Numbered from the stretch's first letter, positions 35,273 through 54,929 are shown. The stretch is 64,000 bases of DNA from Candidatus Zixiibacteriota bacterium (GCA_030605835.1 JAUWHO010000001.1:29966-93965); one strand, 5' to 3'. Notes: generated by a model from the sequence alone, not told the origin. A program made the numbers and translations.

Positions 35273-35319
35273 GTATGGTGAATTGCGAATAGTGAATGGC
35301 TAATAGTCCGCCCTACCCC
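35273..35319. repeat. Dispersed GGTAG/heptamer-periodic intergenic repeat, copy 1.
   Basis: Minus-strand reading GGTAGGGCGGACTATTAGCCATTCACTATTCGCAATTCACCAT, about 55 nt upstream of the ABC ATPase ATG. Related to the copies at 45561, 50104 and 54904. Confidence 0.5.
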
Positions 35320-35390
35320 TATTTCTTATCTCCTATTCCCAATTTCATGTCAAAATCAAATAACCACGAGGTATCGTCGTAGCAAAGTCA

Positions 35391-37388
35391 TCATTCTGAA
35401 TACTCTCCGTCCAGGCCTACTCCTTTTTCGGCCTCCAGGGGTGAATCCGGCTTCAAGCCCGGTTGGGTCCAGATGCTATTGTTCTTGGCGAAAGGTTTGG
35501 CGTAGGTGTCATTGCCCCCGGTGTCTAAAAAAAGCCCCAGGCAGAGAAGATGGTCGCGGAGATAACCTCGGGTGCCGATGTTCGCCCGACCGAGAGTGAT
35601 CTCGCCGGAGGGATTGTAGGTGTCATCACCCCTCTTGTCCCAGAAGATGCCGATGCCGTTGGCGTTGCCCCCACCCAAACTCAGATTGGGACAGTCATAA
35701 ATGTCATCCCCATCCTCTTCTAAAAGGAATCCCAGGGTGAAATCGTGTCCGGCACCCTGAGCCATATTCATGGTGGCGATATAGTGGTCATTCCCCTTGA
35801 CATCGTTTAAGATCCCCAGGCCAAAATGAGCCCCGGAACCCTGCACATACCAGATCCCCTGATAGAGGTCGTCACCTTCCTCGTCAGCCAGAAGCCCGAT
35901 GGCATACCAGTAGGCACAACCCTGAGCAAACAGCCCCGCAGAGTAGTTATCGTTCCCGGCATTATCTAACAGAATCCCTATGCCTCCACCCAGTGAGTGT
36001 CCATCCGAGATGTCGGCTCTCCTGCCGAAACCCACCCCCTGAGAGAGACTGCTGTTGTGTTCCTTGGTTTGAGAGGCGGGGAAATCGATCTTTTTATCCT
36101 CGGCAATGTAGTTGTCGTCACCGTCCAATTCGACCAGCAGACCCAGCCCCTTGGTGAAACCGTAACCCTGGGAGGTGGTAAAGGTGTAATAGCTGTCATC
36201 TCCCGAGAGGTCCGAGAGGACCCCGATTCCGAACGCACCGGAGCCCTGGGAGGAGGTGTAAGCGGCGTAGTTGTCGTTGCCGCTCTTATCCAGGAGCATC
36301 CCCACCCCAAAAAGCCCGCTCCCTTGAGCAAGATTGACCCCGCTGTAATCGTCGTCTCCCTCTAGGTCGACCAAATAAGCGTAACCGAAAACGCCTCCCC
36401 CGAAGGAGGGCTTCTCTTCTGAGAAGGAGACATATTTGTCCGCCCCGGCCAGATCGATCAACACCGAATAGGGATGCGAGAAGGAAAGCGTCGCCGCCCC
36501 TCCGAGGTAGGTGTCATCTCCTCCGGTGTCTATTATCAGAAAGTAGTTTTTGTCCCCGACGTAGTGATTTTTTTGCCCTCCGTTCAAGGAAATGACACCT
36601 AAGGGAGTGTCGAACTCGAAAGAGAAACTCACCTTTTCTGTGAAAGTGCTTAAGGAATCGGAGGCGGCATCCACCGCCAGCGCTAAATCTTGCGCCCCGG
36701 AGTAGAGGTAACGGTAGTCAACAGACTCAATCAGCCTGTAGATTCCCGGGGAGAAAAAATCCTCATCGCTGGAGAGCATCTTGGTGATCTCTTGATACAT
36801 ATCCTCCATATCAAAGAGCCCCATGGCCTCGTAAAAGGCCAAATCCCTCCAGGCCAAGCTGTCACCGACGGCACGGACCAACATCGCCGCCTGAAGAGAG
36901 ACGGTAGCGGGCACCTTCTCGACTCTGGATTTTAATCTCGATTTCTCCTCCCCGCTCATCTCCGTATCAGCGCTTTCGTAAAGGTAGACTATGGCGTCAA
37001 AGAGGGGATTCTCTGTCCTGCACCTCCTGTAGAATTCCGGAACGGGGTTGTTGAAATCGTAAACTCCGCGGCGCACTCCGCAGGCGAGTCTGAGGTTAGA
37101 GAAGACTATCAGATGATGTAAAGAGCCCGGCTTCCGTTTGATGACTTTTCTTAGGTAATCGAGGTAGTTCGGGATTTTGAAAGGTTCGGAGTGGAGGGTA
37201 TAAAAAAGAGGCAGGCTGAACTCACCCCCTCCGAAGTTCGACATATCTTTGTAATCGAACCTCATGCTCTCCTTGGTCAATCCCACCTCCTTCAAGGCAA
37301 GCTCAAATGGATCCTGGGCAAAGCTGAGACAACGAAAGATGAACAGGCAGGCTACCATAAGAAAGATGGCATTCTTGCACATTTTCAT
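35391..37388 (-). CDS. Secreted protein with about 12 tandem ~23-aa repeats carrying an invariant G-[DN]-D-x-Y core.
   Basis: Signal peptide MKMCKNAIFLMVACLFIF... Repeats LLDKSGNDNYAAYT, LSDLSGDDSYYTFT, LVELDGDDNYIAED, LLDNAGNDNYSAGL, LADEEGDDLYQGIW and others, with QG.G.G.G spacers. Start moved to MKMCKN. Confidence 0.65.
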   Translation of the reverse strand: MKMCKNAIFLMVACLFIFRCLSFAQDPFELALKEVGLTKESMRFDYKDMSNFGGGEFSLPLFYTLHSEPFKIPNYLDYLRKVIKRKPGSLHHLIVFSNLRLACGVRRGVYDFNNPVPEFYRRCRTENPLFDAIVYLYESADTEMSGEEKSRLKSRVEKVPATVSLQAAMLVRAVGDSLAWRDLAFYEAMGLFDMEDMYQEITKMLSSDEDFFSPGIYRLIESVDYRYLYSGAQDLALAVDAASDSLSTFTEKVSFSFEFDTPLGVISLNGGQKNHYVGDKNYFLIIDTGGDDTYLGGAATLSFSHPYSVLIDLAGADKYVSFSEEKPSFGGGVFGYAYLVDLEGDDDYSGVNLAQGSGLFGVGMLLDKSGNDNYAAYTSSQGSGAFGIGVLSDLSGDDSYYTFTTSQGYGFTKGLGLLVELDGDDNYIAEDKKIDFPASQTKEHNSSLSQGVGFGRRADISDGHSLGGGIGILLDNAGNDNYSAGLFAQGCAYWYAIGLLADEEGDDLYQGIWYVQGSGAHFGLGILNDVKGNDHYIATMNMAQGAGHDFTLGFLLEEDGDDIYDCPNLSLGGGNANGIGIFWDKRGDDTYNPSGEITLGRANIGTRGYLRDHLLCLGLFLDTGGNDTYAKPFAKNNSIWTQPGLKPDSPLEAEKGVGLDGEYSE

Positions 37389-37634
37389 ACTCCTTCTTCG
37401 AATGAGAGGCATTCGACCCTGAACATAAAAACCGCTTCCACCAGTGTCAACAGCAAAACTCATTAGCCCCCTTGATCCTCACATCAACAAGGTATTGGAA
37501 TCCTCCCATAATCACCTCGGTCCTTTTGCCTGCCGCTCCCCGGCAATTCTGCCTCCGGCATTTTAGAGTAAGGTTAAGTTCGCTGTCGGCAATCAGTTAG
37601 AAGGCTCCCACCCTCTTGCCCACCGGAATCTGAA

Positions 37635-37961
37635 ATGATGGCACAGGAGTTGCAAAAACTTCCTCAAACGGAGGTTCCAAACATGACCAGATTTGATTTG
37701 CGAACCGAACTCTTACGCACCTCCGGCTTGAGCGGCAATCCGAATTGTCCCTTCTGTGGCTCTCGGATGGGGAAGTTTGGAGGTAAAGTCCACTGTCCGC
37801 GGTGCTTCAGCGAGGTGAGAAGTAGCACCTACAATCTGTCGAACTCACCGATGGAAAGGCAACTTGTATCCTCGAATCGACTCCCCTCTTACGACACCAA
37901 TCGGCAGAGCTTCCTGAGCTTCTTGAAAACCCTTCGGGCTTTCTCACCGCAGTTGGATTGA
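37635..37961 (+). CDS. Hypothetical small zinc-ribbon protein (CPFCG...CPRCF).
   Basis: The ORF has a CxxC-x15-CxxC motif. No other support. It could be noncoding. Confidence 0.25.
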   Translation: MMAQELQKLPQTEVPNMTRFDLRTELLRTSGLSGNPNCPFCGSRMGKFGGKVHCPRCFSEVRSSTYNLSNSPMERQLVSSNRLPSYDTNRQSFLSFLKTLRAFSPQLD

Positions 37962-38045
37962 CAACTAAAGGTTGCCCCTCTATCTTTGCTGTGAGTTCGA
38001 ACCGTCTTCCAATCGTCTGGCTGAAATGCCGCCTCGTGCCGATAG

Positions 38046-39242
38046 ATGCGAGCGGAGAGCCTGATTGTGAGAGGGCTCGGGCTTTGCTCGAAGAGATTGG
38101 AGACCTTGGTGCCGGATGAAATTGACCCCCGCTCCCCCTTTTTCGTGGGCCGAAGACAGGGGCCTTACTTAGAGATAAGTGGGAAGAGGCTGGTGATCTT
38201 CTGCTCCAACGACTATTTGGGGCTTTCCTACCATCCCGGGGTTAGAGGAGCAGTTCTCGAAGCCCTGGAGGCGTTTGGGGCCGGTTCCGGAGGCGCCCCC
38301 TCCACCTCCGGCTTTACCCGTCTGCATCACGAATTATCAGAAGCCATAGCAGAATTCAAGCATCGGGAGTCCGCTCTCATTTTCTCCTCCGGCTATCTCG
38401 CCAACCTGGGAGCCCTGTTTGCTCTCGGTGACCGTGACACTCTCTTTTTCTGCGACCGCCTCAATCACCCCAGCCTCCTCGATGGAGTGAGGTTATCGAA
38501 GGGCGATCACAAGATATACGAACATCTCGACTTAGACCACCTGGAATCCCTCTTGAGGGACCTCAAAGGTTACAAGACCCGCATCATTGTTACCGACTCG
38601 GTTTTCAGCATCGACGGGGATGTTGCCCCCCTGCCAGAAATTGTCGAGCTCGCCAAAAAGTACAAAGCCTTGACCTTCTTCGACGAGGCTCATGCCACCG
38701 GCACTGTTGGAGAAAAAGGCGGAGGCATCGAGGATCTCTTCGACGTCCGCGGGAGCGTTGATCTCCTCTCCGGCACCTTCAGCAAAGCCTTAGGATCACA
38801 GGGCGGATTTGTGGCCGCCTCCTCCAGGACCATCGCTCACCTTAAAGGAAAATGCCGTCACTATCAGTATTCCACCTCCCTTTCACCCCTCTGTTGCGCC
38901 GCCGCTCTGGAATCGTTGAGAATCCTGAGTGCCCAGCCAGAATTGGTGACTACGATGCGCTCCAATTTCGACTTCATCAGAGAGAATCTGAGGCGATTGG
39001 GGCTCTCCCTCCCGGAGAGACCGGCTCCGATTCTGCCGGTGCTGTTTGGCGATGCCGGCAAAACCAGAAAGGCGGCAAAGGAGCTCTACCTTCGTGGGAT
39101 TTTCATCGCCCCCCTCACTCCCCCCAGCGTCCCCGAGGCAGGAAGCCGATTGCGGATTACCACCATGGCAACGCATACCGAAGCGGATCTGAAAATCTTG
39201 GTTGGTGCTTTCGATGAGGCCTTAAAGGAGCTAAAGGACTGA
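38046..39242 (+). CDS. Class II PLP-dependent aminotransferase of the 8-amino-7-oxononanoate synthase/serine palmitoyltransferase family (BioF-like).
   Basis: FCSNDYLGLS, GSGGAPSTSG...HHELSEAIAEF, DEAHATG and the SGTFSKALGSQGG Lys-containing motif. Confidence 0.8.
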   Translation: MRAESLIVRGLGLCSKRLETLVPDEIDPRSPFFVGRRQGPYLEISGKRLVIFCSNDYLGLSYHPGVRGAVLEALEAFGAGSGGAPSTSGFTRLHHELSEAIAEFKHRESALIFSSGYLANLGALFALGDRDTLFFCDRLNHPSLLDGVRLSKGDHKIYEHLDLDHLESLLRDLKGYKTRIIVTDSVFSIDGDVAPLPEIVELAKKYKALTFFDEAHATGTVGEKGGGIEDLFDVRGSVDLLSGTFSKALGSQGGFVAASSRTIAHLKGKCRHYQYSTSLSPLCCAAALESLRILSAQPELVTTMRSNFDFIRENLRRLGLSLPERPAPILPVLFGDAGKTRKAAKELYLRGIFIAPLTPPSVPEAGSRLRITTMATHTEADLKILVGAFDEALKELKD

Positions 39243-39425
39243 GAGAGCACAAAGCATCACCAAGAGCAAGTTTTCTCTGACAGGAACTGTCAGGGCAATC
39301 CCTTATCATACTCATCGAGCATGACTCAAAGGCTCGGGCAAGAGGGGTTTCGCCGCCGATTTTGCCCTCTCGAGAAGGGGTTTGCTTACCAAATCCTGGA
39401 TGGAGTCGGAGGCGGCGACCTTGAA

Positions 39426-39465
39426 GAACCCTGCGGGTTTCGTTCCCGCGGGGTTCTTTCCTTAC
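39426..39465 (+). terminator. Strong hairpin plus U-tract in the 350-nt leader between the BioF-like and exosortase genes.
   Basis: GAACCCTGCGGG-tttcgtt-CCCGCGGGGTTC (12 bp, one G-T pair), followed by TTTCCTTAC. Confidence 0.45.
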
Positions 39466-39592
39466 AGACTTCAACGAACCAGAAGAGAACATAATCGGGC
39501 CTTGTCTGAAGCGACGTGCCGGTTGACTCCATTTTACAGCTTCTTTCAATCGCTTGAGCCCTTTACCGATAAAGTAACAGAGAGAGGATAAG

Positions 39593-40498
39593 GTGAGAGC
39601 GACCATCGAAAAAGACAAAGCCGAGGTTTCAGCTCCAAGACCAAGTTCGGTCAAGACTTTTTCCTCAGGTCTGAGGGAGATACTCCCACTTCTACTTTTA
39701 GGGCTGGTTTTGCTTCTGACATACATTCCGGTCATCATCGATCTGGTCAAGGACTGGTGGCAGGACCCCAACTATTCCCACGGATTCCTGGTTCCCTTTG
39801 TGTCAATCTACCTGGTTTACAAGAAGTGGCCAGAGTTGGCCATAAGCGAGAGAAAATCCTGCTGGTGGGGGCTGACCCTTGTGATTTTCGGGCTGTTGCT
39901 TCTGATTCTGGGCACTGCCGGGGCGGAGTATTTCACGGTGCGATTCTCTCTCGTGGTATTACTTGCGGGATTGGTTGCCTACTTGTATGGGAAGAAGTTT
40001 TTAGGGCTCCTGCTGGTTCCTATCTGTTACCTCTTATTCATGATACCGATCCCCTACACCATCTATTACTCCCTTACTCTGCCGATGCAACTGTTCGCGA
40101 GCAAATGCGCGGTGGGAGTTCTGCAGTTCTTGGGCATACCGGTGTTCAGAGCGGGGAACATCATCATCTTGCCGAATTACTCTCTGGAGGTGGGAGAGGC
40201 TTGCAGTGGCTTGCGCTCCCTGGTGAGCTTGATGGCATTGGGATTCCTGTTCGCCTACCTAAGTCAGAAGCGCAACCTCAATCGCGCCATACTCTTCGCC
40301 TCCACCCCAATCATCGCGATAATCGCAAACGTTTTTCGGGTGAGCACCACAGCTCTGGGAGCCTATGCGGTGAGCCCCAAGTTAGCGGAGGATTTCCTGC
40401 ACAAGCTTTCGGGGCTTTTAGTATTCGTATGCTCGGTTTTCTGTCTCGTTATTCTGGGAGGGATTTTGAGTTGGGTCCAAAAGAGAAAAGAATCTTAG
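39593..40498 (+). CDS. Exosortase (Xrt) family transpeptidase, 8-TM.
   Basis: Catalytic Cys motif EACSGLRS and the conserved Arg motif ANVFRVSTTA. Polytopic membrane protein. Confidence 0.85.
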   Translation: MRATIEKDKAEVSAPRPSSVKTFSSGLREILPLLLLGLVLLLTYIPVIIDLVKDWWQDPNYSHGFLVPFVSIYLVYKKWPELAISERKSCWWGLTLVIFGLLLLILGTAGAEYFTVRFSLVVLLAGLVAYLYGKKFLGLLLVPICYLLFMIPIPYTIYYSLTLPMQLFASKCAVGVLQFLGIPVFRAGNIIILPNYSLEVGEACSGLRSLVSLMALGFLFAYLSQKRNLNRAILFASTPIIAIIANVFRVSTTALGAYAVSPKLAEDFLHKLSGLLVFVCSVFCLVILGGILSWVQKRKES

Positions 40499-41100
40499 TC
40501 GCCTGTATCCTCATATTCTTGGCTGCTCTTTTCACCTACAAGCTCCGTTACGGTCGAGCCGAGGTGGCGAGTGTACCGCGACTTGACTCCATCCCCCTCG
40601 ATTGCCAGGATTGGAGAGGCCAGGATTTCCCGCTAGATGAAAGAACCGCCGAGATCTTAGGAGCGGATTTCAATTTGAATCGCAGATACACCAACGGCGA
40701 AGGGCAGACCGTGTGGCTTTTCCTGAGCTACTTCAAAGACCAGAGATATGGTTCTCAGATACACTCGCCTCAGAACTGTCTTCCCGGGAGCGGTTGGGCG
40801 ATTGTCCAAAAGGAGATGGTGAAGTTGAAAACCGGGGGGGATACGTTGGAGAGCAGGCTGCTTGAAGCAAGAAAGGGGGAGAAAGAGGTAAAGGTCTATT
40901 ACTGGTTTCTGACCCGCAGCGGCACCTTAGCAGATGAGTATGCCTTAAAACTGGATCTGGTCTCTAACGCCCTAAGAGGTCACCCCACCGACGCCCTTTT
41001 CGTCAGGCTTACCACTGACGCGGAGCCAGCCATAATCGAAGGATTTCTACAGATGATGTGGCCGCATGTGTCAAAGCTACTATCTTCTCAAAACCACTAA
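40429..41100 (+). CDS. Exosortase-associated EpsI-like protein (single N-terminal TM plus a periplasmic domain).
   Basis: It is the in-frame C-terminal third of the 447-aa track ORF. TM ILVACILIFLAALFTY. It immediately follows and overlaps the exosortase gene. The start is ambiguous (ATG 40429 or TTG 40471). Confidence 0.55.
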   Translation: MLGFLSRYSGRDFELGPKEKRILVACILIFLAALFTYKLRYGRAEVASVPRLDSIPLDCQDWRGQDFPLDERTAEILGADFNLNRRYTNGEGQTVWLFLSYFKDQRYGSQIHSPQNCLPGSGWAIVQKEMVKLKTGGDTLESRLLEARKGEKEVKVYYWFLTRSGTLADEYALKLDLVSNALRGHPTDALFVRLTTDAEPAIIEGFLQMMWPHVSKLLSSQNH

Positions 41101-41345
41101 AGTATTATCATGAAGTGCTCAATAAGGAGATAGCGATCGCACCTGGGAGATCGGAAAAGCCTGCCAGACGAATGACCGCAACTGTGAACCACAAGCCAAA
41201 GACTCCTATCAGGACCATTTGAAATACCTTGACATCACATTTGAAAACCATTAGTAATTGACAAATTTCCTGGTCGAAAGGAGGTGGTGTGTCCAGCTAC
41301 AATTGTTAAAGAGCAAAACCAGTTCTAAAAATAGCGAGGATGAAA

Positions 41346-41878
41346 TGAAGAGACTCTTGATCTTACTGCCGATCACGTTCTTGTTTCTGACACTAGGTTC
41401 AACCTCATTTGCCCAGATGATGTTGGGTCCTAAGGGGGTTGGAGCTTTTCTGGGGTATGTCAACCCAGAGCACGTCGACGCTACCCTTGGCTTCGGCGCG
41501 GTTGTTGATATGGGCACCTTGACGCCAACGTTAGGCCTGGACCTGGAGATACTGTACTGGTCGAAGTCCGAGGGGCCCTCGGATAGAAAGGTCAGCTGGC
41601 GTGACATAGTCCTTTGCGCTCATGCCAGATACAGATTCTCGTTGCCAGGCAGCCCTGTGAAGCCGTACATGGGTGGGGGGATTGGCCCTCATTTCGTCAA
41701 GCACGAGCAGAGTGGCAAGTCTGAGACCGACACCAAGTTCGGCCTTCACCTGTTGGCGGGGGCTGAATATGAGGTCTCACCCAAGGTGGCGCTCTTCGGG
41801 GAATGGCGCTATGCTATAGTCTCGGATATTAATCAATTTGCCATCTTCGCAGGGGCGAAGTATAAGTTGGGTCAGTAA
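41346..41878 (+). CDS. Small outer-membrane beta-barrel (OmpW/OMP_b-brl-like) protein.
   Basis: Signal peptide MKRLLILLPITFLFLTLGSTSFAQ. Alternating amphipathic beta strands. C-terminal aromatic-rich ...FAGAKYKLGQ. Confidence 0.6.
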
Positions 41879-41931
41879 AACACGCCGAAAACGAGACGGA
41901 AAACTCCAGCACTTTGCCGGAGTCCTTTCGC

Positions 41932-42156
41932 CTAATCCACAGCCACGACCTTTTTCACCTCTGGGATTTTCTCTTTCAGAGTTCTTTCCACTCCCATCTG
42001 CAGGGTCATCTGCGACATCGGGCAACCCTTACAAGCACCGGTCAATCGAACCTTAACGGTACCATCCTCTCCGACCTCGACCAATTCCACATCCCCACCA
42101 TCAGCCTGCAAGTAGCCGCGTATGCTGTTTAAGGCTTCTTCGACCTTCTCTTTCAT
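41932..42156 (-). CDS. NifU-like (Nfu C-terminal domain) Fe-S cluster protein.
   Basis: GGDVELVEV...V.L.GAC.GCP motif (LTGACKGCPMSQMTLQ). Confidence 0.7.
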   Translation of the reverse strand: MKEKVEEALNSIRGYLQADGGDVELVEVGEDGTVKVRLTGACKGCPMSQMTLQMGVERTLKEKIPEVKKVVAVD

Positions 42157-42332
42157 TTCCTCTCCTCTATAGTCTCTTCACTCTTTTTCGGATTGTAGAC
42201 TCATCTGTTTATACTATTGATCCTTTGAAGGAGTTTGTGGTTTCCAAGCGAGCACGCGCCACCGCGATTCTGAACCTAGCCGTCAAATGGAGTTGACCAG
42301 GAAACCTGTCCATTTCTACCAAGCGTTCCTCC

Positions 42333-43394: not shown

Positions 43395-43561
43395 CGGTAC
43401 TCCCTCTTTATCTTTACTATTTTAGAAACCAAAGCCGAATCGATAAGTTTCAGAATTTACGCAGTTTTCGCTCTCTTGCAACAGTCACTGCAACGGAAAA
43501 TTGTTGATTTACCATCCTGGGCTCCATATGTTAACAGCAAAATACGGATACAGGCGCAATT

Positions 43562-46139: not shown

Positions 46140-46349
46140 GTGACCCTGAAAACTAAGAAGAAAAGCCCGGAGATAATTTTCAGAGATGGAAAACCGGCAG
46201 CGGTCATTCTCGAAATTAAGGAGTATCAGGATATGCTTGAGCGTCTGGAGGATATAGAGGATCTGAAGATGCTCCAGAAAATGAGAAAGCGACCGCTAAA
46301 ATTCAGAAAGCTGGAGGATTTCCTCAAGGAGTATTCCCCCGTTGTATAA
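46140..46349 (+). CDS. Type II antitoxin, Phd/YefM-like.
   Basis: A 69-aa protein with PAAVILEIKEYQDMLERLEDIED. GTG start after GGAGGTG. It overlaps the downstream RelE/ParE gene by 8 nt. Confidence 0.6.
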   Translation: MTLKTKKKSPEIIFRDGKPAAVILEIKEYQDMLERLEDIEDLKMLQKMRKRPLKFRKLEDFLKEYSPVV

Positions 46350-46596
46350 GCTTTACCTCGAAAGAGCCGCCGAACGTGACCTGAAGCGCCTCTCAACAGA
46401 AAACTTCCATCGCCTCATAACCGAGATAAAAATGCTGGCTAAAGAGCCAAGACCGCCGGGCGCAAGAAAGATTATCGGCTCCAAAGACGATTGGCGAATA
46501 CGGGTCGGAGACTGGCGAGTAGTTTATGAAATCGACAATAAACAGAAAGTTGTGCGGATAATGCGGGTGCGGCTGAGAAGAGAGGTCTACCGGTAA
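46342..46596 (+). CDS. Type II toxin, RelE/ParE family.
   Basis: An 84-aa protein with RIRVGDWRVVYEIDNKQKVVRIMRVRLRREVY, typical of RelE/ParE toxins. Confidence 0.7.
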   Translation: MYKLYLERAAERDLKRLSTENFHRLITEIKMLAKEPRPPGARKIIGSKDDWRIRVGDWRVVYEIDNKQKVVRIMRVRLRREVYR

Positions 46597-46649
46597 ATTA
46601 TGGTGGAGATGGAAATAGACCAAAAAATCAAACAAGCACTAATGGTTGC

Positions 46650-48797
46650 ATGAGACTGGATAAAGAAAAAGCCAAAAAGAGAGCCAGATTCGTTCTCGCC
46701 TCCGGGCTGGTTCTGGCGATAATCGTAATAATCGTCGGCATTGAAACCTATAAGTCCTATCGAGAAGACCTTCCCTCGTTAGAACAGCTTCACAATATCC
46801 AACCGGGGCTGATCACCCGCATATACTCAGCCGACCGACAGATCCTTCAGGAATATTTCAATCAGAGAAGGATCATGGTGCCCTTCAACAGATTCCCCAA
46901 ACACCTGGTTGATGCCCTCCTGACGGTGGAAGATAGACAGTTCTATTACCACTGGGGAGTGAACCTCAGCGCCATAGCCCGGGCGGCAGCGGTGAATATC
47001 ATGACCTTGAGCCGCTCCCAGGGTGGTTCCACCTTGACCCAGCAGTTAGCCCGGAATCTCTTCCTGACCCCGGAAAAAACCATCGCCAGAAAGATCAGGG
47101 AAGCGATGACCGCCATCGAGATCGAGAAGAACTACTCCAAGGACGAGATCCTCAACATGTATCTCAACCAACAGTATTTCGGGAAGGGGGCTTACGGCAT
47201 TCAGGCGGCGGCTCAAACCTTTTTCAGCAAGGATATCTCCGAGCTGACGATCTCTGAGTCGGCGCTTCTGATCGGCCTGTTGAAGGCACCCAATACCTAT
47301 TCTCCCATCGACCGTCCCGACAGGGCTCGAGGGCGACGCAACGTGGTTCTGAACGCCATGGTCGATTACGGAAAACTATCAAGAGGGGTTGCCGATAGCC
47401 TCAAAGGTCTTCCGCTCGAGATTCATCCCCCCGAGCCCCCGGTCAGACCTGGGGCTTACTTCTCTGAGACGGTGCGGCAGTATCTGGTGAGAAAATACGG
47501 AGAGAATGTCCTCTACTCCTCCGGCCTCACCGTTGAAACCACACTGAACTACGAACTCCAGGTGGAAGCCGAAAGAATCATCGCTGAACATCTGTCGAGA
47601 CTGCAGGCAGACATGGAGAGGCATCACAGTCTGGAGGACTCCAATTACACCATTGAAGTCACCGATACGGTCGATGGAGAAATCGTTGTCGCCAGAGAAT
47701 ACAAAGAGCTGCAATGTGCTCTGGTGGGCATCGACAACAAGACCGGAGGCGTAATAGCCATGGTGGGAGGGAGAGATTTCAAAAGGAGCAAGTTCAATCG
47801 TGCCGTTCAGGCCAAAAGGCAGCCCGGCTCCGGATTCAAACCCTTCACCTATACCACCGCCATAGACAACGGTTTCAAGCCCACCGATATTATCATAGAT
47901 GCCCCCATAGTAGTCCCAATAGGTGGAGAGGAATGGCGTCCCAAGAACTTCGACCGCACCTTCAGGGGCCCCACTACCCTGCGATATGGCCTCAGCAAAT
48001 CGATAAACCTGGTCACCATCAAGCTGCTGATGGATCCGACCGTTACCCCCCAGCAGGTGGTTTTCTACGCCAAACGGATGGGAATAAAATCGGAGCTTCA
48101 AGCAGTCCCCTCTCTGGCAATCGGAACCTCCGAGGTGACCCCCTTGGAGATGGCTTCAGCCTTCACGACCTTCCCCAACGGAGGCATCTGGACGGAGCCG
48201 TATTTTGTGACCAGGATTCTGGATCGCTACGGGAACGTCTTGGAGGAGCGGGAAAAACCTTATCAGGAGGAGGCCATCTCCGCCACCACCGCCTACATTA
48301 TGACCAGTATGCTGGAGAGTGTCATCAACTCTGGCACAGGTTACGGAGCCCGGCGATGGGGATTCAATCGCCCCGCCGGAGGCAAAACCGGCACCTCCGA
48401 TTTCAGCACCGACAACTGGTTCACCGGCTTCACCCCTCAGATAACCACAACTGTCTGGGTGGGCTATGACGACAAGACCCAGATAGGCGAGGGGAGAGGT
48501 CTGACCGGAGCTGCCACGGCGCTACCGATCTGGACCGAGTTCATGAAGAAGGCACATTTCGGACTGCCGGTGGAGGAGTTCGTCCAACCTGCTGGAATTA
48601 TCGAAGCCGCCGTCTGTTTGGAGTCCGGCCTGCTGGCAAGACCAGACTGCCCCAATAAGGTCACTGATCTTTTCACGGAATCGACGGTGCCACAAGACAC
48701 CTGCAGTCTATCTCATATGGAGTTTTCCGCAAAGAGCGAGGAGAAAACCCGTTTCAAAATTCAAGAAGAAGAGGATAAGAAGAGAATCCGATTCTAG
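46650..48797 (+). CDS. mrcA: Penicillin-binding protein 1A (bifunctional glycosyltransferase/transpeptidase).
   Basis: GT51 motifs (EDRQFYYHWGV, GGSTLTQQLARN). Transpeptidase SxxK (SGFKPF), SxN and KTGTS. N-terminal TM. Confidence 0.9.
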   Translation: MRLDKEKAKKRARFVLASGLVLAIIVIIVGIETYKSYREDLPSLEQLHNIQPGLITRIYSADRQILQEYFNQRRIMVPFNRFPKHLVDALLTVEDRQFYYHWGVNLSAIARAAAVNIMTLSRSQGGSTLTQQLARNLFLTPEKTIARKIREAMTAIEIEKNYSKDEILNMYLNQQYFGKGAYGIQAAAQTFFSKDISELTISESALLIGLLKAPNTYSPIDRPDRARGRRNVVLNAMVDYGKLSRGVADSLKGLPLEIHPPEPPVRPGAYFSETVRQYLVRKYGENVLYSSGLTVETTLNYELQVEAERIIAEHLSRLQADMERHHSLEDSNYTIEVTDTVDGEIVVAREYKELQCALVGIDNKTGGVIAMVGGRDFKRSKFNRAVQAKRQPGSGFKPFTYTTAIDNGFKPTDIIIDAPIVVPIGGEEWRPKNFDRTFRGPTTLRYGLSKSINLVTIKLLMDPTVTPQQVVFYAKRMGIKSELQAVPSLAIGTSEVTPLEMASAFTTFPNGGIWTEPYFVTRILDRYGNVLEEREKPYQEEAISATTAYIMTSMLESVINSGTGYGARRWGFNRPAGGKTGTSDFSTDNWFTGFTPQITTTVWVGYDDKTQIGEGRGLTGAATALPIWTEFMKKAHFGLPVEEFVQPAGIIEAAVCLESGLLARPDCPNKVTDLFTESTVPQDTCSLSHMEFSAKSEEKTRFKIQEEEDKKRIRF

Positions 48798-50098
48798 TTC
48801 AAGAAGCCGATGATTCTCTGAAGAGGTTTGACCGCTGTATCCGAGAAAACAAGAGCTTCTTTCAGATCCAAAGCCGCTTTCTTCCCGAGAGATTCATCCG
48901 AGGCGTGAACGGAGGCTACTACTTCTCCCCTTTCTACTCTATCTCCAATTTTCTTCTCGAATATGAAACCTACCGCCGGGTCGATCTGGTCGCTGATGAG
49001 TTTTCGTCCCCCGCCGAGCTCGATACAAAGCTGACCAACCCGCAAGGTATCGACAGCTTTGAGGAAACCATCTCTTTCGGCTTTCACCTGTAAGACCAGC
49101 TTCGCCCGTGGCAACCTTGAATAATCGTCAATTGCTCTACTATCTCCTCCCTGATTCTCCACCATCTCCTTGAACTTCTCCAGCGCCTCGCCGTTTTCGA
49201 TCTTTCTCTTCAAAACCTTTCGAGCCTCCTCTTTATCGGAGCTCACCTCCGCCATTAAGAGCATCTGAACTCCCAGAGCTTCGGTGACCTCCCAGAGATC
49301 TCGGGGACTTTCCCCCCTTAAGCATTCAATACATTCAACGACCTCGAGCGCGTTTCCGACCGCGAAACCTAAAGGTTCGTCCATGGAGGTGAAGACCGCA
49401 GCCGCTCTTCGGCCCATCCTTTTGGCGACAGAGATCATAGCCTTAGCCAATCTCTCGGCGTCGTCCAACTTCCTCATGAAGGCGCCATTGCCGACCTTCA
49501 CGTCGAAGACAATTCCATCACAGCCGGAGGCCAGTTTCTTGCTCATGATGCTGCCGACAATCAGAGGAATCGATTCGACCGTGGCGGTGACATCCCTCAA
49601 GGCATAGATCTTCTTATCCGCGGGAGCAATCTCATGGGTCTGCCCGATGATGGCCACCCCGATTCGGCGCAAGCTCTCCTTAAACTCCTTCAGGGAGAGA
49701 GTGGTTCTAAATCCAGGTATCGATTCCAGCTTGTCTAAAGTTCCCCCGGTGTGGCCCAGGCCTCTCCCCGAGATCATGGGAACGACAACCCCACAGGAAG
49801 CTAAAAGCGGAGCCAGGATCAAAGAGACCTTGTCGCCCACGCCGCCGGTGGAATGCTTGTCGATTTTAGGGGCGTCTATGAAGCTCAAATCCAGTATCTG
49901 GCCAGAATGCAACATCGATTCGGTGAGGAAATGAGTTTCCTCCTCATCCATACCGTTGATGCAGACCGCCATGAGAAATGCAGACATCTGATAGTCGCGG
50001 ATCTTGTCCTGGGTGAAATCCGAGACCAAAAAATCGATCTCCTCACGTCTGAGCTTCTTACCGTCTCTCTTTTTGGCAATGATACCGTATACGTCCAT
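48794..50098 (-). CDS. deoA: Thymidine/pyrimidine-nucleoside phosphorylase.
   Basis: IIAKKRDGKKL..EEI, DKHSTGGVGDK and the overall family pattern. Confidence 0.9.
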   Translation of the reverse strand: MDVYGIIAKKRDGKKLRREEIDFLVSDFTQDKIRDYQMSAFLMAVCINGMDEEETHFLTESMLHSGQILDLSFIDAPKIDKHSTGGVGDKVSLILAPLLASCGVVVPMISGRGLGHTGGTLDKLESIPGFRTTLSLKEFKESLRRIGVAIIGQTHEIAPADKKIYALRDVTATVESIPLIVGSIMSKKLASGCDGIVFDVKVGNGAFMRKLDDAERLAKAMISVAKRMGRRAAAVFTSMDEPLGFAVGNALEVVECIECLRGESPRDLWEVTEALGVQMLLMAEVSSDKEEARKVLKRKIENGEALEKFKEMVENQGGDSRAIDDYSRLPRAKLVLQVKAERDGFLKAVDTLRVGQLCIELGGGRKLISDQIDPAVGFIFEKKIGDRVERGEVVASVHASDESLGKKAALDLKEALVFSDTAVKPLQRIIGFLN

Positions 50099-50103
50099 CT
50101 TCG

Positions 50104-50165
50104 AGTAGTAAATGGTGAATGGTAAATAGTGAATAGACCCAATCCCTACCTACTACCTACTAACC
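50104..50165. repeat. GGTAG/heptamer-periodic repeat, copy 2 (the longest).
   Basis: Minus strand GGTTAGTAGGTAGTAGGTAGGGATTGGGTCTATTCACTATTTACCATTCACCATTTACTACT, ending 6 nt upstream of the deoA ATG. Units of 7 nt. Confidence 0.55.
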
Positions 50166-50174
50166 GCCGTTGCG

Positions 50175-50555
50175 CTAGAGCTCAAAGGCTTCCGGCAGAA
50201 GCTCGCCAAGCTTGTGTCTGGTTATCTCTCCATCCAGATTGGCGCAGACTATCGAACAGTTGCGGCTGAACTCTGTCAAGACCTGCAGACAGGCGCCACA
50301 GGGTTTGGCCGGAGGAGACTTGTCAGTTACCACGACGAGGCTCGCGAATTCCTTCTCTCCCGAGGAGACCGCGCTAAAGACAGCAGTCCTCTCCGCACAA
50401 ATCGTAAGTCCGTAGGAGGCGTTTTCCACGTTGGCGCCGGTGTAAACCTTGCCGGAGGAGGTAAGAAGCGCCGCCCCTACCTTGAATTCAGAATAGGGAG
50501 CGTAGGCTTTGAGCCGAGCCCTCTTGGCGCTCTCTATCAGTTCCTCTTCGCTCAT
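50175..50555 (-). CDS. cdd: Cytidine deaminase.
   Basis: YAPYS.F.VGAAL, CAER zinc motif (CAERTAV), PCGACLQV. Start moved to MSEEEL. Confidence 0.85.
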
Positions 50556-51730
50556 GTTATCTCCGTTAAAAAGCTCTCTCCGCAACCGAAAGACGAAAAC
50601 CCGAACGCTTCTGAGACGGTGGCACCCAGATCGCCCAAGCTTTCCCTGGTCCCCAGATCAACTCCGGGCCTCAGTTCGGGACCAAATACCAATAAGGGGA
50701 CATATTCCCGGGAATGGTCGGTCGAGGGAGTAGTGGGGTCACAGCCGTGGTCGGCGGTGATTATGAAGATGTCTTTCCCTCCGAGTAGAGACAGAAACTC
50801 CGGCAACCTCCGGTCAAAATCCTCCAGCCCCTTTGCGAAATTCACATAATCGTTGCGATGGCCCCAGAGCATATCGAAGTCCACCAGATTGGCGAAAATC
50901 AGTCCTCTCTTCTGGCTTTTCATTGTCTGATGAATTACCTCCATCCCGTGCTTATTCGAGCTGGTGTGAATGGCGCGGGTGAAGCCTCGCCGACCAAAAA
51001 GGTCATCAACTTTGCCAATGCTGGTGACCTCGACACCTACAGCTTTCAAATAATCTAATAGAGTGTCAGCAGGCGGGGGGAGAGAGAAATCTTTGCGCCT
51101 CTCGGTTCTGGTGAAATTCCCCGGTTTACCGATGAAAGGGCGAGCGATAACTCGAGCCACACCATGCTCTCCGGTCAGGATCTCACGGGCTTTTCGGCAT
51201 ATCCGGTATAGCTTGTCTATCGGAATGACCTCCTCGTGAGCCGCCAGTTGAAACACGCTGTCGGCGGAGGTGTAGAGGATCGGCTTTCTCGTCCTGCAAT
51301 GTTCTTCCCCCAGCTCCTTTATGATTTCTGTCCCGGAGGCGGGTTTATTGCCCAGAACTTCCAGCCCCGTCAGCTCCTTGAATTTCTCGACGATCTCTTC
51401 CGGGAACCCGTTCGGGTAGGTGGGGAAGGGACGGGTTGTTATGAGACCCATGAGCTCCCAGTGGCCGACAGTACTGTCCTTTCCTGAGGATAGAGTGGCC
51501 ATCTTTCCAAAAGAGGCACTGGGCATTGAAGCTGGAGGGACACCCCTGATGGGAACGATATCCCCTAAACCCAACCTCTCCAAATGCGGGAGATTAATAC
51601 CTCCGACAGCTTCGGCGGTGTTGGCAATGCTGTTTGAGCCTTCATCCCCATACCGGGCCGCATCCGGCAAAGCCCCGACACCACAGCTGTCCAATATTAT
51701 GATGATGACCCTTTCGAATTCTCTGGCCAC
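50552..51730 (-). CDS. deoB: Phosphopentomutase.
   Basis: [16 protein letters not shown]-terminus, and alkaline-phosphatase-superfamily metal motifs ([10 protein letters not shown]). Confidence 0.9.
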
Positions 51731-51755
51731 AGGAAACTACCCAATCCAGTCCCTC

Positions 51756-51813
51756 AAAATAAAAAAACCGCTTTCTTTAACCTCCCTCCCGGGAGGCGAA
51801 CCTCAAAGCGGCT
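51756..51813 (-). terminator. Rho-independent terminator downstream of rplQ (end of the alpha operon).
   Basis: Minus strand AGCCGCTTT...(inner palindrome CCTCCCGGGAGG)...AAAGCGGTTTTTTTATTTT. Confidence 0.6.
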
Positions 51814-51830
51814 ATTGAGGACTCCTTCGA

Positions 51831-52337
51831 CTATTCTTTCTCTTCGCTTCTCTCCTCGTCTGCCCTCTCCTCTGTCTCTGTCTCGGGAGCTTCCTCTTTC
51901 TTCTTGGAAGCTTTCGCCTCCGGAGCCTTCTTCTTTGCGGTCTTTTTGGCTTTGGTTTTCTTCTTTTCCTTTTTCTCTTCGGTGTAAGTCAAAAGCCGCA
52001 CCAACGACACCGAGGCACCATCCCCGAGCCTGTGCCCCAGATGGATGATTCTGCAACTTCCACCGCTATTGCCTTCCAGCTTGGGAACTATCTCATCAAA
52101 GAGCTTTCTGAGGACTACTTTGTTCCTGACGGTGGTCGCCACCAGGCGCCGGGAATGGAGATCGCCTCTTTTCGCCAGAGCGACCAGCCTGTCGGTCCAG
52201 ATTTTGAGGGCTTTGGCCTTAGTGGTGGTGGTCTTGATCTGTCCATGCTCCAACAGTGAGGTCACCAGATTTGCAAGCATGGCCCTACGGTGGGAGCTGG
52301 TCACCCCCAATTTTCTCACTTTTTTGCGATGGCGCAT
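51831..52337 (-). CDS. rplQ: 50S ribosomal protein L17 with a Lys/Ala/Glu-rich C-terminal extension.
   Basis: MRHRKKVRKLGVTSSHRRAMLANL... Start moved from the track ORF to MRHRKK. C-terminal KKEKKKTKAKKTAKKKAPEAKASKKKEE tail. Confidence 0.9.
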   Translation of the reverse strand: MRHRKKVRKLGVTSSHRRAMLANLVTSLLEHGQIKTTTTKAKALKIWTDRLVALAKRGDLHSRRLVATTVRNKVVLRKLFDEIVPKLEGNSGGSCRIIHLGHRLGDGASVSLVRLLTYTEEKKEKKKTKAKKTAKKKAPEAKASKKKEEAPETETEERADEERSEEKE

Positions 52338-52338
52338 G

Positions 52339-53331
52339 TCACTCTTGGGTTGAAGGCTCTCTGTACTTGGATATATCCATCCCGAAGTGAAGCCCCATCT
52401 CACCTAAGACCGCATTGAGCTCGTTTAAGGACTTCTTGCCGAAATTGCGGTACTTGAGCATCTCCGCTTCGCTCTTGTGGACCAAATCCTCGATAATCTG
52501 AATGTTGGCTGCCTGCAGGCAGTTGGAGGAACGGACCGAAAGCTCCAGTTCGTCAACCCTCATCTTGAGGAGATTCCTTATTCTGATGGTCTCCTCGTCG
52601 ACTACCTCCTCTTCGGGAATCTCTATCTCCTCCTCCTTGCAGATGAACACCATCAGGTGGTCTTTCAGCAACTTCGCCGCAAAGGCCAGGGCCTCCTCCG
52701 GGCTCATGGTGCCATCGGTCCAGATCTCTAAGAGCAGACGATCATAATCAGTTCTCTGACCCACCCGGGTGTTTTCGACACTGAGATTCACCCTGCTGAC
52801 CGGGGAGTAGGTCGCGTCCAGCGGGATGGTTCCGATCGGCTGGTCCGGCTTTTTGTTCTGCTCTGAGGAGACATAGCCTCGCCCGGTGTCGACCTCCATT
52901 TCGATCTTAACCTCGCTGTTCTCGCTGAGCTTGAGGAGATGCTGCTCCGGGTTAACGATTTCAATTGTCGGATCACAAACGAGATCGCCAGCAGTGTAGT
53001 CTCCTTTCTTTTTGACCTCCAGATAGATGGACCTGGGCCCGTCCTCCTGCATCCTCAGACGGACCTTCTTGAGGTTTAAAACTATCTCAACGACGTCCTC
53101 GTATACCCCCGGGAGGGTAGAAAACTCGTGGAGGGCGCCGTCAATCCTCATGGAGGTGATCGCCGCCCCCGGTATGGAAGACAAGAGCGCTCTCCGCAGG
53201 ACATTTCCCAGAGTAGTCCCAAACCCCCGCTCCAAGGGCTCTATCTTGAACTTGGAGTACATATCGGTGGCGGTGGACTCCTCCAAGACAACCTCTTTAG
53301 GCATCTGAAAATTCTTCAATTTAGCGGTCAC
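52339..53331 (-). CDS. rpoA: DNA-directed RNA polymerase subunit alpha.
   Basis: N-terminal domain GFGTTLGNVLRRALLSS plus a C-terminal domain. Confidence 0.93.
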   Translation of the reverse strand: MTAKLKNFQMPKEVVLEESTATDMYSKFKIEPLERGFGTTLGNVLRRALLSSIPGAAITSMRIDGALHEFSTLPGVYEDVVEIVLNLKKVRLRMQEDGPRSIYLEVKKKGDYTAGDLVCDPTIEIVNPEQHLLKLSENSEVKIEMEVDTGRGYVSSEQNKKPDQPIGTIPLDATYSPVSRVNLSVENTRVGQRTDYDRLLLEIWTDGTMSPEEALAFAAKLLKDHLMVFICKEEEIEIPEEEVVDEETIRIRNLLKMRVDELELSVRSSNCLQAANIQIIEDLVHKSEAEMLKYRNFGKKSLNELNAVLGEMGLHFGMDISKYREPSTQE

Positions 53332-53357
53332 CAGGACCTCCTCCCGAAAATAACCAC

Positions 53358-53993
53358 CTATTTAGAGTAAAGCTCAACAATAAGCTGTTCTTGAACCAAA
53401 ACCGGGATGTCTTCCCTTTTGGGGCGCTCCAGAAGCTCCCCTTCCAGCTTGGCCTTGTCCAACCTCAACCAGGGGAGCTCCGACCCCCTTCCGGCATCTT
53501 TCAAAGCGTCGTGGATGACGTCTAGGTTACGGCTCTTCTCTCTGACGCTCACAATATCGCCGGGCCTAAGAGCGTAGGAGGGAATATCCGCCTGGCGGCC
53601 GTTGACCTGAAAATGATCGTGGCGCACCAACTGTCGGGCCGATTTCCTGGAGGGGGCAAAGCCCAAACGATAAACGATATTGTCCAGCCGACACTCCAAC
53701 TCTTGCAGGAGGTTCTCGCCGGTTATCCCCTTGCACCTCTCCGCCCTCTCGAAGTAGTTCCTGAATTGTCTCTCCAAGACCCCGTAAATCCTGCGGACTT
53801 TCTGTTTTTCCCGCAATTGCAGACCGTAACCGCTGGTCCTTCTGCGGCGGATGGCGTTGCCGTGTTGCCCGGGAGGGTAACCACGCCGGTCGAAGCCGCA
53901 TTTATCGGCATAACAGCGATTCCCCTTCAGGAAGAGCTTCATCCCCTCACGTCGACACAGCTTACAATTTGCACCACTATACCTGGCCATCAA
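53358..53993 (-). CDS. rpsD: 30S ribosomal protein S4.
   Basis: [23 protein letters not shown] zinc-ribbon start, and an S4 domain. Confidence 0.93.
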
Positions 53994-54069
53994 TCACTCC
54001 CGAAATCATGAACTAGTATCAACAGCATCTCCAGAAGCAACGACCCTAAAAAGAACTTCGAGGCCGCGG

Positions 54070-54462
54070 CTAGACCCTCCTTCTTTTCGGTGGACGGCAA
54101 CCGTTATGGGGAATGGGAGTAACGTCTTTTATGGCGGTTATCACCAATCCCGCAGCCTGCAAGGATCTGATGGCGGCCTCTCGTCCGGATCCCGGACCCT
54201 TGACCCAAACCTCCACTTTCCGCAATCCCATCTCCATCGACTCCCTGGCAGCTGCTTGGGCCGCCCTCTGGGCCGCGAATGGGGTGCTCTTTCTCGAACC
54301 CTTGAACCCCATCTTGCCGGGGGAGCCCCAGGCGATCACGTTGCCGCCCTCGTCGGTCAGGGTGATGATGGTGTTGTTGAAGGTCGCCTTGATGTGGGCG
54401 ATGCCGTGGGGCTCTACCTTGCGACCCTTCTTTTTCGACTTTCTTCTCTTAGCTTCTGCCAA
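54070..54462 (-). CDS. rpsK: 30S ribosomal protein S11.
   Basis: [18 protein letters not shown]...[14 protein letters not shown]. Confidence 0.93.
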
Positions 54463-54519
54463 CTAACCTCCTAAAGAAAAGGGTGCGAACGAAAGACCCC
54501 TGCTCCAATCGCTAGTCAC

Positions 54520-54900
54520 CTATCTACCTCTTTTCCCCTTTTTGTGCCCTATGGTTTTCTTGGGACCCTTGCGGGTTCTGGCGTTGGTTTTGGTCCTCTG
54601 GCCCCTCACCGGGAGCCCCCGGCGGTGCCTCAGACCCCGATAACATCCGATATCGATGAGGCGCTTAACGTCCATCGCCACCTCACCCCGCCGAGCCCCT
54701 TCCACCTTGCAACTGGCCTCGATTTCGCCTCTGAGCTTGGCAACCTCTTCCTCCGACAGCTTGTTGACCCGGGTGTCGGCATTGACTCCGGTGGCCATCA
54801 GAATCCTCTTGGAAGAGGAAAGCCCAATACCGTATATGTATGTGAGCGCCACCTCAATCCTCTTGTCGCGTGGCAGATCGATTCCCGCAATTCTCGCCAT
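54520..54900 (-). CDS. rpsM: 30S ribosomal protein S13.
   Basis: [26 protein letters not shown]. Confidence 0.93.
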
Positions 54901-54903
54901 AGA

Positions 54904-54929
54904 CCCTACCTACTATCTAATAACTAACC
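54904..54929. repeat. GGTAG heptamer-periodic repeat, copy 4.
   Basis: Minus strand GGTTAGTTATTAGATAGTAGGTAGGGTCT, immediately followed by the rpsM ATG. It overlaps the rpmJ stop codon. Confidence 0.5.

Follow-up and report, generated by a model that had tools for sequence, protein, structure and literature searches.

The 64,000-nt stretch of DNA analysed here (GCA_030605835.1, JAUWHO010000001.1:29966-93965; referred to as the window) comes from a Candidatus Zixiibacteriota bacterium. Judging by DeoA, whose best named relative in a homology search is 88% identical and belongs to a Candidatus Zixiibacteriota metagenome-assembled genome (MAG), the window genome appears to be Zixibacteria-like. 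Four spacers of the window contain a GGTAG-rich repeat element: copy 1 separates a 690-aa gene, whose function is unknown, from a MalK-like ABC ATPase gene, copy 2 lies between a HEAT-repeat/cyclophilin gene and a four-helix-bundle gene of the PF05635 family, copy 3 between cdd and deoA in a deoB-cdd-deoA operon, and copy 4 between rpmJ and rpsM inside a ribosomal-protein operon. A first-pass annotation had described these sites as dispersed, placed in one orientation, built with a heptamer period and located tight against start codons, and this description is accurate. All four sites were confirmed at the coordinates it gave, and on the strand that is sense for the downstream gene, each consists of GGT followed by TAGNNNN units.

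Copy 2 contains four TAG triplets spaced at exactly 7 nt, and copies 3 and 4 contain three apiece; in copy 1, the pattern is degenerate (TAG, TAA and TAG followed by a 6-nt step). The window contains three period-7 runs of at least three TAG triplets, while a mean of 0.06 was expected from 300 second-order Markov simulations, none of which reached three. A relaxed autocorrelation over all 64 kb detected period-7 arrays at copies 1, 2 and 3 only, all of them intergenic, and spacers make up only 5.6 of the 64 kb. Independently, the program TRF reported periods of 7 or 14 at 35278-35307, 45560-45589, 50106-50136 and 50146-50162. The 64 kb of the window, the part of the genome that was surveyed, hold four GGTAG sites, every one of which is located in a spacer.

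Copy 1 (35273-35340, minus strand), which precedes the MalK-like ABC ATPase gene, is degenerate and gene-less. From 35340 to 35273, in the sense of that gene, its sequence is GGGAATAGGAGATAAGAAATAGGGGTAGGGCGGACTATTAGCCATTCACTATTCGCAATTCACCATAC; the 5' part, GGGAATAGGAGATAAGAAATAGGGGTAGGG, reaches 35340 and thereby extends past the end at 35319 given earlier, and the 3' array consists of the units TATTAGC CATTCAC TATTCGC AATTCAC. Copy 2 (45561-45592, plus strand; (GTAGGTA)n ... GGTAGGGG) is the 5' arm of a gene-bearing cassette. It begins 1 nt past the stop codon of the HEAT-repeat/cyclophilin gene and extends as far as the ATG with which the PF05635 gene starts (with flanks, 45558-45599: AAAGTAGGTAGTAGGTAGTAGACGGTAGGTAGGGGAGAAATG), and its final unit GGGGAG is the Shine-Dalgarno-like motif of the enclosed gene. 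Copy 3 (50104-50165, minus strand) is a gene-less hairpin, which fills the 76-nt cdd-deoA spacer and reads GGTTAGTAGGTAGTAGGTAGGGATTGGGTCTATTCACTATTTACCATTCACCATTTACTACTC from 50165 to 50104. It is composed of the 5' arm GGTTAG(TAGGTAG)2GG at 50144-50165, the centre ATTGGGTC and the 3' array (YATTYAC)4 plus TACTC at 50104-50136. Copy 4 (54901-54929, minus strand), a half element with the 5' arm only (GGTTAGTTATTAGATAGTAGGTAGGGTCT; with flank, 54929-54898: GGTTAGTTATTAGATAGTAGGTAGGGTCTATG), constitutes the entire rpmJ-rpsM spacer: its first TAG doubles as the rpmJ stop codon, and GGTAGGG is found 3 nt before the rpsM ATG. As noted earlier, this ATG is located where ATT follows GGGTCT in the long copy (GGGTCTATT versus GGGTCTATG). 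The spacers of copies 2, 3 and 4 are 26-76 nt long and separate co-directional genes.

The copies also share sequence beyond the period. The 5' arms of copies 3 and 4 (GTTAGTAGGTAGTAGGTAGGG versus GTTATTAGATAGTAGGTAGGG) are identical at 19 of 21 positions, and the 3' cores of copies 1 and 3 (CATTCACTATTCGCAATTCACCAT versus TATTCACTATTTACCATTCACCAT) at 20 of 24, the common 24-nt core being YATTCACTATTYRCMATTCACCAT. The motif GGGTCTAT, which had been claimed for all four sites, is present in copies 3 and 4 only; copy 1 has GGCGGACTAT instead, and copy 2 has GGGGAG and then ATG. A further motif of copy 1, GGGAATAGGAGA, matches the inner array of the elements of two relatives described below (L232 and L233). 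The four sites are therefore related copies or fragments of one palindromic element family rather than mere lookalikes. Both arms of the element are short tandem arrays of 7-nt units: purines prevail in the 5' arm (GGTAGTA type, with an inner GGGAATA type), and the 3' arm complements it with pyrimidine-rich units (YATTYAC and TACTACC types). In its complete form, represented by copy 2, the element has a PF05635 gene in its loop, while copies 1, 3 and 4 are gene-less derivatives, the last of them reduced to a single arm.

The gene enclosed by the cassette (45597-46031, plus strand; PF05635 23S_rRNA_IVP, TIGR02436) encodes a four-helix-bundle protein. Its 144-aa open reading frame (ORF) matches Pfam PF05635 with an E-value of 7.6e-36, the domain match ending at residue 113, and scores 116.7 bits against TIGR02436 (cut-off 24); the match to PDB entry 2GSC has an E-value of 3e-17. 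The last ~30 codons of the ORF run into the 3' arm of the cassette, which is located at 45973-45988 (plus strand), 400 nt downstream of the 5' arm, and had not been recognised before. This arm, CTGCTATCTAC-T-TACC, is a degenerate reverse complement of the 5' arm. In a fold of the region 45545-46085, positions 45564-45578 (GGUAGUAGGUAGUAG) pair with 45973-45988 (CUGCUAUCUAC-U-UACC) through 11 + 4 bp across the PF05635 ORF, and the minimum free energy and centroid structures agree in this pairing. Copy 2 is thus the 5' arm of an inverted-repeat bracket around the PF05635 gene.

The 5' arm was also found in the orthologous contigs L185, L186 and L237. In L186, GGT-AGTAGACAGTAGGTAG aligns to GGTAAGTAGATAGCAGCTAG. 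In L237, which comes from a relative with 88% DeoA identity, the position of the 3' arm is occupied by a perfect inverted array, CCCTACATG(CTACCTA)3CTAAC: the ORF ends in TAA after ...SSLAR, and the next sequence is CCCTACATGCTACCTACTACCTACTACCTACTAAC, which repeats the GGTAG array perfectly in inverted form. The ORF of the window reads through the degenerate 3' arm because the ancestral TAA became AAA. The ortholog in L237 (10461-10976, minus strand of the locus) is a pseudogene, as a TGG near codon 20 has been changed to TAA, which stops it prematurely, and both heptamer arms are intact despite the decay of the ORF.

Further features were observed around the cassette. An outer stem is possible, whose left half (45525-45552, plus strand) would overlap the last codons of the cyclophilin gene and whose right half (46029-46058, plus strand) would lie immediately past the ORF stop; the best local alignment of the upstream flank with the reverse complement of the downstream flank gives only 21 matches over 28 positions, which is weak evidence. 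The cassette is followed by a Phd/ParE toxin-antitoxin pair (46140-46596). The same site in L237 lacks the pair, which therefore represents a recent insertion beside the cassette. Of all promoter-like matches detected in the scanned 20 kb, the best, TTGACA-17-TATTAT (11/12) at 46000-46028 on the plus strand, is located within the read-through tail of the ORF and just upstream of the Phd/ParE pair. The possibility that the four-helix-bundle gene is an accessory gene (Avd) of a diversity-generating retroelement (DGR) was considered and rejected: it scores 33 bits against the Avd model, the cut-off of which is 80, and its neighbours are the cyclophilin gene and the Phd/ParE pair.

The inverted heptamer bracket is a general property of the PF05635 gene family and is found in many phyla. 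A search of metagenome contigs with the four-helix-bundle protein of the window returned 47 loci (37-89% identity), in whose flanks a tandem array is located just before the ATG and its reverse complement just past the stop codon. The units vary from locus to locus (GACAGGA, GCAAGTA, GGTGTTA, CTAGATG, GAAGTCA, GCTTAAA and others). Among ten lags, lag 7 was the best in 28/45 upstream and 26/45 downstream flanks. Period-7 arrays were present on at least one side of 26 of the 36 non-redundant genes, which come from unrelated metagenomes, and on both sides of ten, compared to 38 and 3, respectively, of 236 control genes taken from the same contigs. In 290 kb, 20 strict arrays of period 7 and a single one of period 9 were counted, and periods 5, 6, 8, 10 and 11 were not represented. 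Upstream and downstream arrays are usually reverse complements of each other (median duplex z-score -2.5, extreme -10), have a median purine content of 69% and 32%, respectively, and typically contain 3-5 units (median 4). In an independent sample of viral contigs, obtained with a family alignment, five loci were returned and all four that were inspected had the same bracket. The cassettes are co-oriented with their upstream neighbour in 28/35 cases and with their downstream neighbour in 30/42; these figures are uninformative, because they are near those usual for adjacent bacterial genes. A minority of cassettes has units of 9 nt (L198, L204, L205) or 8 nt (L209, L210, L219) in both arms, so period 7 is preferred, but not obligatory. 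Furthermore, a 14.5-kb metagenome contig with a four-helix-bundle gene (L218; BBPD01002219.1) carries at least 11 strict heptamer arrays of the GAGTCNN type and its complement (34-2292, 5131-5161 and 11421-11458). The arms of its own cassette are made of other units, which argues against a simple rule of one protein, one heptamer.

The history of the gene-less copies could be followed at orthologous sites. The cdd-deoA spacer was compared in relatives ranked by DeoA identity: at 91%, it is the same as in the window; at 88% (L232/L237), it is 161 nt long and consists of (GTAGRTA)4, (GGGAATA)4, GGAGAATCC, a small hairpin, GGTTGGGTCC and (ATTYACY)6, where (GGGAATA)n approximates the reverse complement of (TATTCAC)n; at 81% (L233/L238), it has (GTAGRTA)6, a single GGGAATA unit, the same centre as in the 88% relative and a shorter 3' array; at 76% (L234), the 5' TAG array is absent and GGTTGGGTCTATTCACGATTTACCATTTTCCATTTACT is retained. 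The number of units at this one site is therefore 0, 3, 4+4 or 6+1. The 161-nt spacer of L232 folds as a single hairpin (-49.3 kcal/mol, z-score -3.8 for the sense strand; -51.3 kcal/mol, z-score -4.7 for the antisense strand), and none of 200 shuffled sequences folded as well. Copy 3 of the window is accordingly an internal-deletion derivative of a longer palindrome, which is why its arms complement poorly and its z-score is weak. The 5' arm of copy 2 is unstructured when folded alone, and convincing folds were only obtained for the long-range pairing and the full-length forms. Copy 4 was recovered in four strain-level contigs, two of which have one substitution (GGTAGGG to GGTAGGA); the rpmJ-rpsM copy is identical in the 88% relative and differs by three substitutions and no indel in the 81% relative. 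At the cdd-deoA, rpmJ-rpsM and cyclophilin-PBP sites, the element is kept in all relatives examined, with differences in repeat number and internal parts, and changes there by slippage, deletion and point mutation.

GGTAG arrays are not confined to the window and its relatives. A 16-mer common to copies 2 and 3 was found at 62 loci in viral contigs and at more than 118 in genomes, including Bacteroidota, Pleurocapsales and other cyanobacteria, Omnitrophota, Patescibacteria, Planctomycetota and others; (GGTAGTA)n is present in contigs of Pleurocapsa, Waterburya, Fischerella and Calothrix. In a blastn comparison, none of the array-bearing genome loci listed matched the window. In one Omnitrophota contig (L102), the array runs into the start codon as it does in the window, and in another (L107), GGTAGGG is followed by a second array and then by the ATG. 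The arrays never lie within a sense ORF and start at a median of 10 nt past the upstream stop codon. Lone arrays between co-directional genes have GGTAG on the sense strand in 52 and on the antisense strand in 22 cases. Among 108 arrays in other genomes with full flanks, an inverted partner of (GGTAGTA)n within 250 nt was found downstream of 22 and upstream of none (background 3%), which means that the purine arm always comes first. The idea that every (GGTAGTA)n array accompanies a PF05635 gene could be ruled out, as such a gene is adjacent in only 2 of the 118 loci listed.

Two observations in these genomes deserve mention in their own right. Long (GGTAGTA)n ... (TACTACC)n palindromes, whose arms have up to about 15 units each, are numerous in contigs classed as viral (L066, L060, L020, L036, L051 and L056; IMGVR_UViG_3300002986_000087, 3300002183_000015) and occur in several places within one 38-kb contig. 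Moreover, the layout of copy 3 is present in an unrelated phylum, in Brevefilum sp. of the Anaerolineae (L110, about 3950-4130, minus strand), where (GGTAGTA/GGTATTA)n precedes, at a distance of about 100 nt, an (ATTCACY)n array with a T run after it.

The closest known counterpart of copy 2 is the intervening sequence (IVS) of the S23p type, which is known from Coxiella burnetii and Leptospira. The Coxiella IVS is a 428-nt insertion in helix 45 of the 23S rRNA, whose ORF belongs to the PF05635 family and is located in the loop of a 28-bp terminal stem; this stem is cut by RNase III, with the 5' cut at the start of the first repeat (PMC4990558). Two to three tandem GACAGAT heptamers precede the ATG, their number depending on the strain, and the ORF is decaying; the authors termed the element selfish (PMC4990558). 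Copy 2 resembles these IVSs in that a PF05635/TIGR02436 ORF is enclosed in the loop of an inverted-repeat stem, with tandem heptamers right before its ATG. In addition, the ORF is prone to decay, the pseudogene of L237 being a parallel to the decay reported for Coxiella, and the element would likewise be transcribed with its host RNA. S23p-type IVSs, however, sit in helix 25 or 45 of the 23S rRNA, whereas the window copy is located in a spacer between protein genes: no rRNA was found in the window, and the genes flanking copy 2 encode proteins, so that copy 2 is not inserted in a helix of a 23S (or 16S) rRNA gene. Unlike an S23p-type IVS, the window element is also accompanied by gene-less and half copies dispersed in other spacers. 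The arms of the surveyed cassettes are made of the heptamer arrays themselves; for the Coxiella IVS, a 28-bp terminal stem is described.

The gene-less copies are reminiscent of the STRRs (sequences that are short, tandemly repeated and repetitive) of cyanobacteria. These are 7-bp repeats that form hairpins, for instance between hupS and hupL; their function is unknown, but a role in transcript stability or translational coupling has been proposed (PMC2670836). Like the arrays of the window, STRRs are tandem 7-nt units in non-coding DNA, are often found between co-transcribed genes and are capable of hairpin formation. Their known hosts are filamentous or heterocystous cyanobacteria, while the window is Zixibacteria-like and the same arrays occur in other phyla. 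In the literature, of which coverage was incomplete, no link between inverted heptamer arrays and either PF05635 genes generally or STRRs was found, and searches for GGTAGTA, TIGR02436 and PF05635 returned just the Coxiella IVS paper and passing mentions.

Hairpins in spacers are also known from the Correia or nemis elements of Neisseria and similar miniature inverted-repeat transposable elements (MITEs), which are short palindromes co-transcribed with the flanking genes. Their RNA hairpins are substrates of RNase III, thereby altering the fate of the mRNA. The terminal inverted repeats of Correia elements, however, are unique and are accompanied by a TA target duplication; these elements lack both heptamer arrays and a four-helix-bundle gene, and no target duplication was seen for the window element.

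Taken together, it appears reasonably likely that the four sites belong to a single palindromic family, which is a variant of S23p-type IVSs and STRR-like repeats residing in the spacers of mRNAs. Three defining features were absent from the first-pass annotation, namely that the arrays form palindrome arms, that a PF05635 gene is enclosed by one copy and that members of this gene family are bracketed likewise in many other phyla. According to this explanation, the element would be transcribed within its host operon, and the arms would pair to give a long, imperfect stem. RNase III might cut this stem, as it does in the Coxiella IVS; alternatively, it may act as a plain intercistronic hairpin, and the insertion would do little harm either way. 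A TAG every 7 nt would place a stop codon in each of the three frames before the stem is reached: since 7 is no multiple of 3, a single stop triplet per unit suffices to close all frames. Such stops are present in the GGTAG arm of the window, but only in about half of the upstream arrays of the family (9/19). The terminal GGTAGGG or GGGGAG unit could serve as a ribosome-binding site, in which case copies 2 and 4 would have been co-opted as stop-to-start linkers. The arrays lengthen and shorten by slippage. The earlier suggestion of a translation-initiation element thus fits in part, for copies 2 and 4, in which the last GGTAGGG or GGGGAG unit is located 3-5 nt before the ATG, but not copies 1 and 3, whose GGTAG array is 55-60 nt away from it. 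Any effect on mRNA stability or translation, as well as processing by RNase III, is inferred.

Several results weigh against this explanation. If the stem were selected as RNA, G.U-compatible mismatches between the arms should be enriched on the sense strand; the counts, however, are 100 for the sense and 110 for the antisense strand (A.C), and the long hairpin folds equally well on either strand. The sense RNA is therefore not singled out over the DNA, and the claim at the RNA level rests on analogy. The short copies of the window fold just slightly better than shuffled sequences (z-scores -1.6 to -2.1). Copy 1 follows a terminator-like hairpin with a T run (35363-35383, minus strand), which is located directly after the stop codon of the 690-aa gene; copy 1 is therefore perhaps not intercistronic and may sit in a 5' leader. 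Down to a DeoA identity of 76%, conservation is stronger in the 3' half of copy 3 than in its 5' half, which could point to a host function unrelated to the palindrome. The family hidden Markov model detected a PF05635 gene in 4 of the 118 array-bearing loci listed, adjacent to the array in two of them (L137, L096); most arrays thus lack the gene, so that the arrays may be primary and the gene a lodger.

Mobility is a further point on this side of the balance. Among other readings, the first-pass annotation suggested a mobile promoter or leader cassette. The notion of a cassette-like repeated element went in the right direction, but past mobility was not demonstrated, since no empty site was found among the relatives examined at the cdd-deoA, rpmJ-rpsM and cyclophilin-PBP sites and no target-site duplication is visible at the borders of the copies. 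At cdd-deoA and rpmJ-rpsM, the copies are old and have been inherited vertically. A mobile repeat of the MITE or REP (repetitive extragenic palindromic) type found no support on the same grounds, as neither target-site duplication nor presence/absence polymorphism was seen among these relatives. Other candidate structures found no support either. A G-quadruplex formed by the GG runs was rejected, as copy 4 and most heptamers of the family lack the required G runs. No intrinsic terminator (G+C-rich stem plus T run) was detected within any copy. No match to Rfam 15 at the sites reached the gathering score, and permissive searches gave chance-level matches only (E 0.27 and 0.42).

An alternative that seems unlikely is that the arrays are binding sites of a ring-shaped protein for RNA or single-stranded DNA, perhaps the PF05635 pentamer itself, with one unit per subunit; the role of the element would be to control its own gene or those downstream. 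Models for such a system are HutP and TRAP, which bind UAG at fixed short spacing in leader mRNAs of Bacillus: HutP reads UAG-N4-UAG-N4-UAG, which corresponds to a spacing of 7 nt, and TRAP reads GAG/UAG triplets. UAG at exactly 7 nt in copies 2-4 would fit this model, as would arrays of 3-5 units, given that 2GSC, the nearest solved homologue, was deposited with five chains and is described as a homopentameric toroid (PMC4990558). Arrays also adjoin the gene in most members of the family, and the solo copies of the window use the heptamer of the local cassette. HutP and TRAP arrays, however, are single-stranded, are located beside a terminator and belong to the leader of one operon, whereas the arrays described here are dispersed, have no terminator and are paired with a complement, an arrangement that fits a stem better than a single-stranded track. 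Moreover, the heptamers vary widely between cassettes, TAG is not conserved in the wider family, solo arrays in contigs such as L218 are unlike the local cassette arms, the window contains neither a HutP nor a TRAP gene, and the arrays persist in the 88% relative although its ORF is a pseudogene.

It is improbable that the arrays are plain products of microsatellite-like slippage, which never moved, have no function and resemble each other by convergence. On this view, 7-nt repeats would be tolerated in spacers, since sequence with a period other than a multiple of 3 cannot pass for coding. This would account for the differences in repeat number between close relatives, for the many different heptamers in many phyla and for the rpmJ-rpsM copy, which has accumulated point substitutions at about the neutral rate. 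Slippage would not explain, however, why the copies have non-repeat parts in common (GGTTAG...GGTAGGG(N)TCTAT, the 24-nt core and the GGGAATAGGAGA motif) or why the inverted arm pairs have a fixed polarity (22 to 0), and it gives no account of the association with one gene family or of the near-exclusive use of period 7 over 5, 6, 8, 10 and 11.

Little probability is likewise assigned to a palindrome that acts at the level of DNA, as a cruciform or single-stranded hairpin for a transposase or recombinase, as in the REP/RAYT and IS200/IS605 systems, or in replication or recombination, so that transcription would be irrelevant. The symmetric arms, in which G.U-compatible mismatches are no commoner than A.C, the equal folding of both strands and the dispersal of the copies are all in line with this idea. 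Nevertheless, no transposase-like or RAYT-like gene lies beside any copy, lone GGTAG arrays between co-directional genes are biased towards the sense strand, and the arrays abut stop and start codons; furthermore, the one characterised relative, the Coxiella IVS, acts as RNA (PMC4990558). The promoter or leader cassette and the transcription-factor array proposed earlier are highly improbable as drivers of the downstream genes: all four copies do point to a downstream gene at 0-60 nt from its start, but none of the 19 promoter-like matches in 35100-55050 (sigma-70-like -35/-10 hexamers at a spacing of 16-18 nt) falls within a copy, copies 2-4 lie in tight co-directional spacers inside operons, copy 4 even between rpmJ and rpsM, the elements are palindromes, and direct repeats 7 bp apart would be exposed on different faces of the DNA helix.

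Two observations elsewhere in the window concern other subjects. The G+C content at 20001-22000 is 0.40, compared to about 0.52 elsewhere, and a segment spanning the small genes at 20667-22435 was possibly acquired. An Rfam tRNA match at 5338-5399 (minus strand; 46.7 bits, model positions 6-65 of 71) may represent a truncated or degenerate tRNA, e.g., the remnant of an integration site, as ARAGORN reported no tRNA anywhere in the window.

Returning to the palindromic family in mRNA spacers, a practical consequence concerns annotation, since the arrays yield false C-terminal extensions, such as that of the 144-aa ORF described here, and spurious antisense ORFs. Some gene-less arms now provide the stop codon and the putative ribosome-binding site of essential genes (rpmJ, rpsM). 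Both the rRNA IVS with its ORF and the cyanobacterial STRR have been without an accepted function, and the locus suggests that they are possibly of the same kind. The PF05635 family itself is uncharacterised and related to the Avd protein of DGRs (PMC10053308). A far-reaching, speculative extension, to which only a low probability is given, would unite PF05635 genes and heptamer hairpins, including STRRs, in one widespread and hitherto undescribed class of mobile elements. Gene-bearing cassettes would then be the autonomous members, and the far commoner gene-less arrays, STRRs among them, the non-autonomous ones. The pentamer would recognise the repeats with one unit per subunit, thereby promoting spread, protection or processing of the element. 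If this were true, it would provide a function for the orphan Avd-related family and an origin for the STRRs, which has been lacking since 1990.

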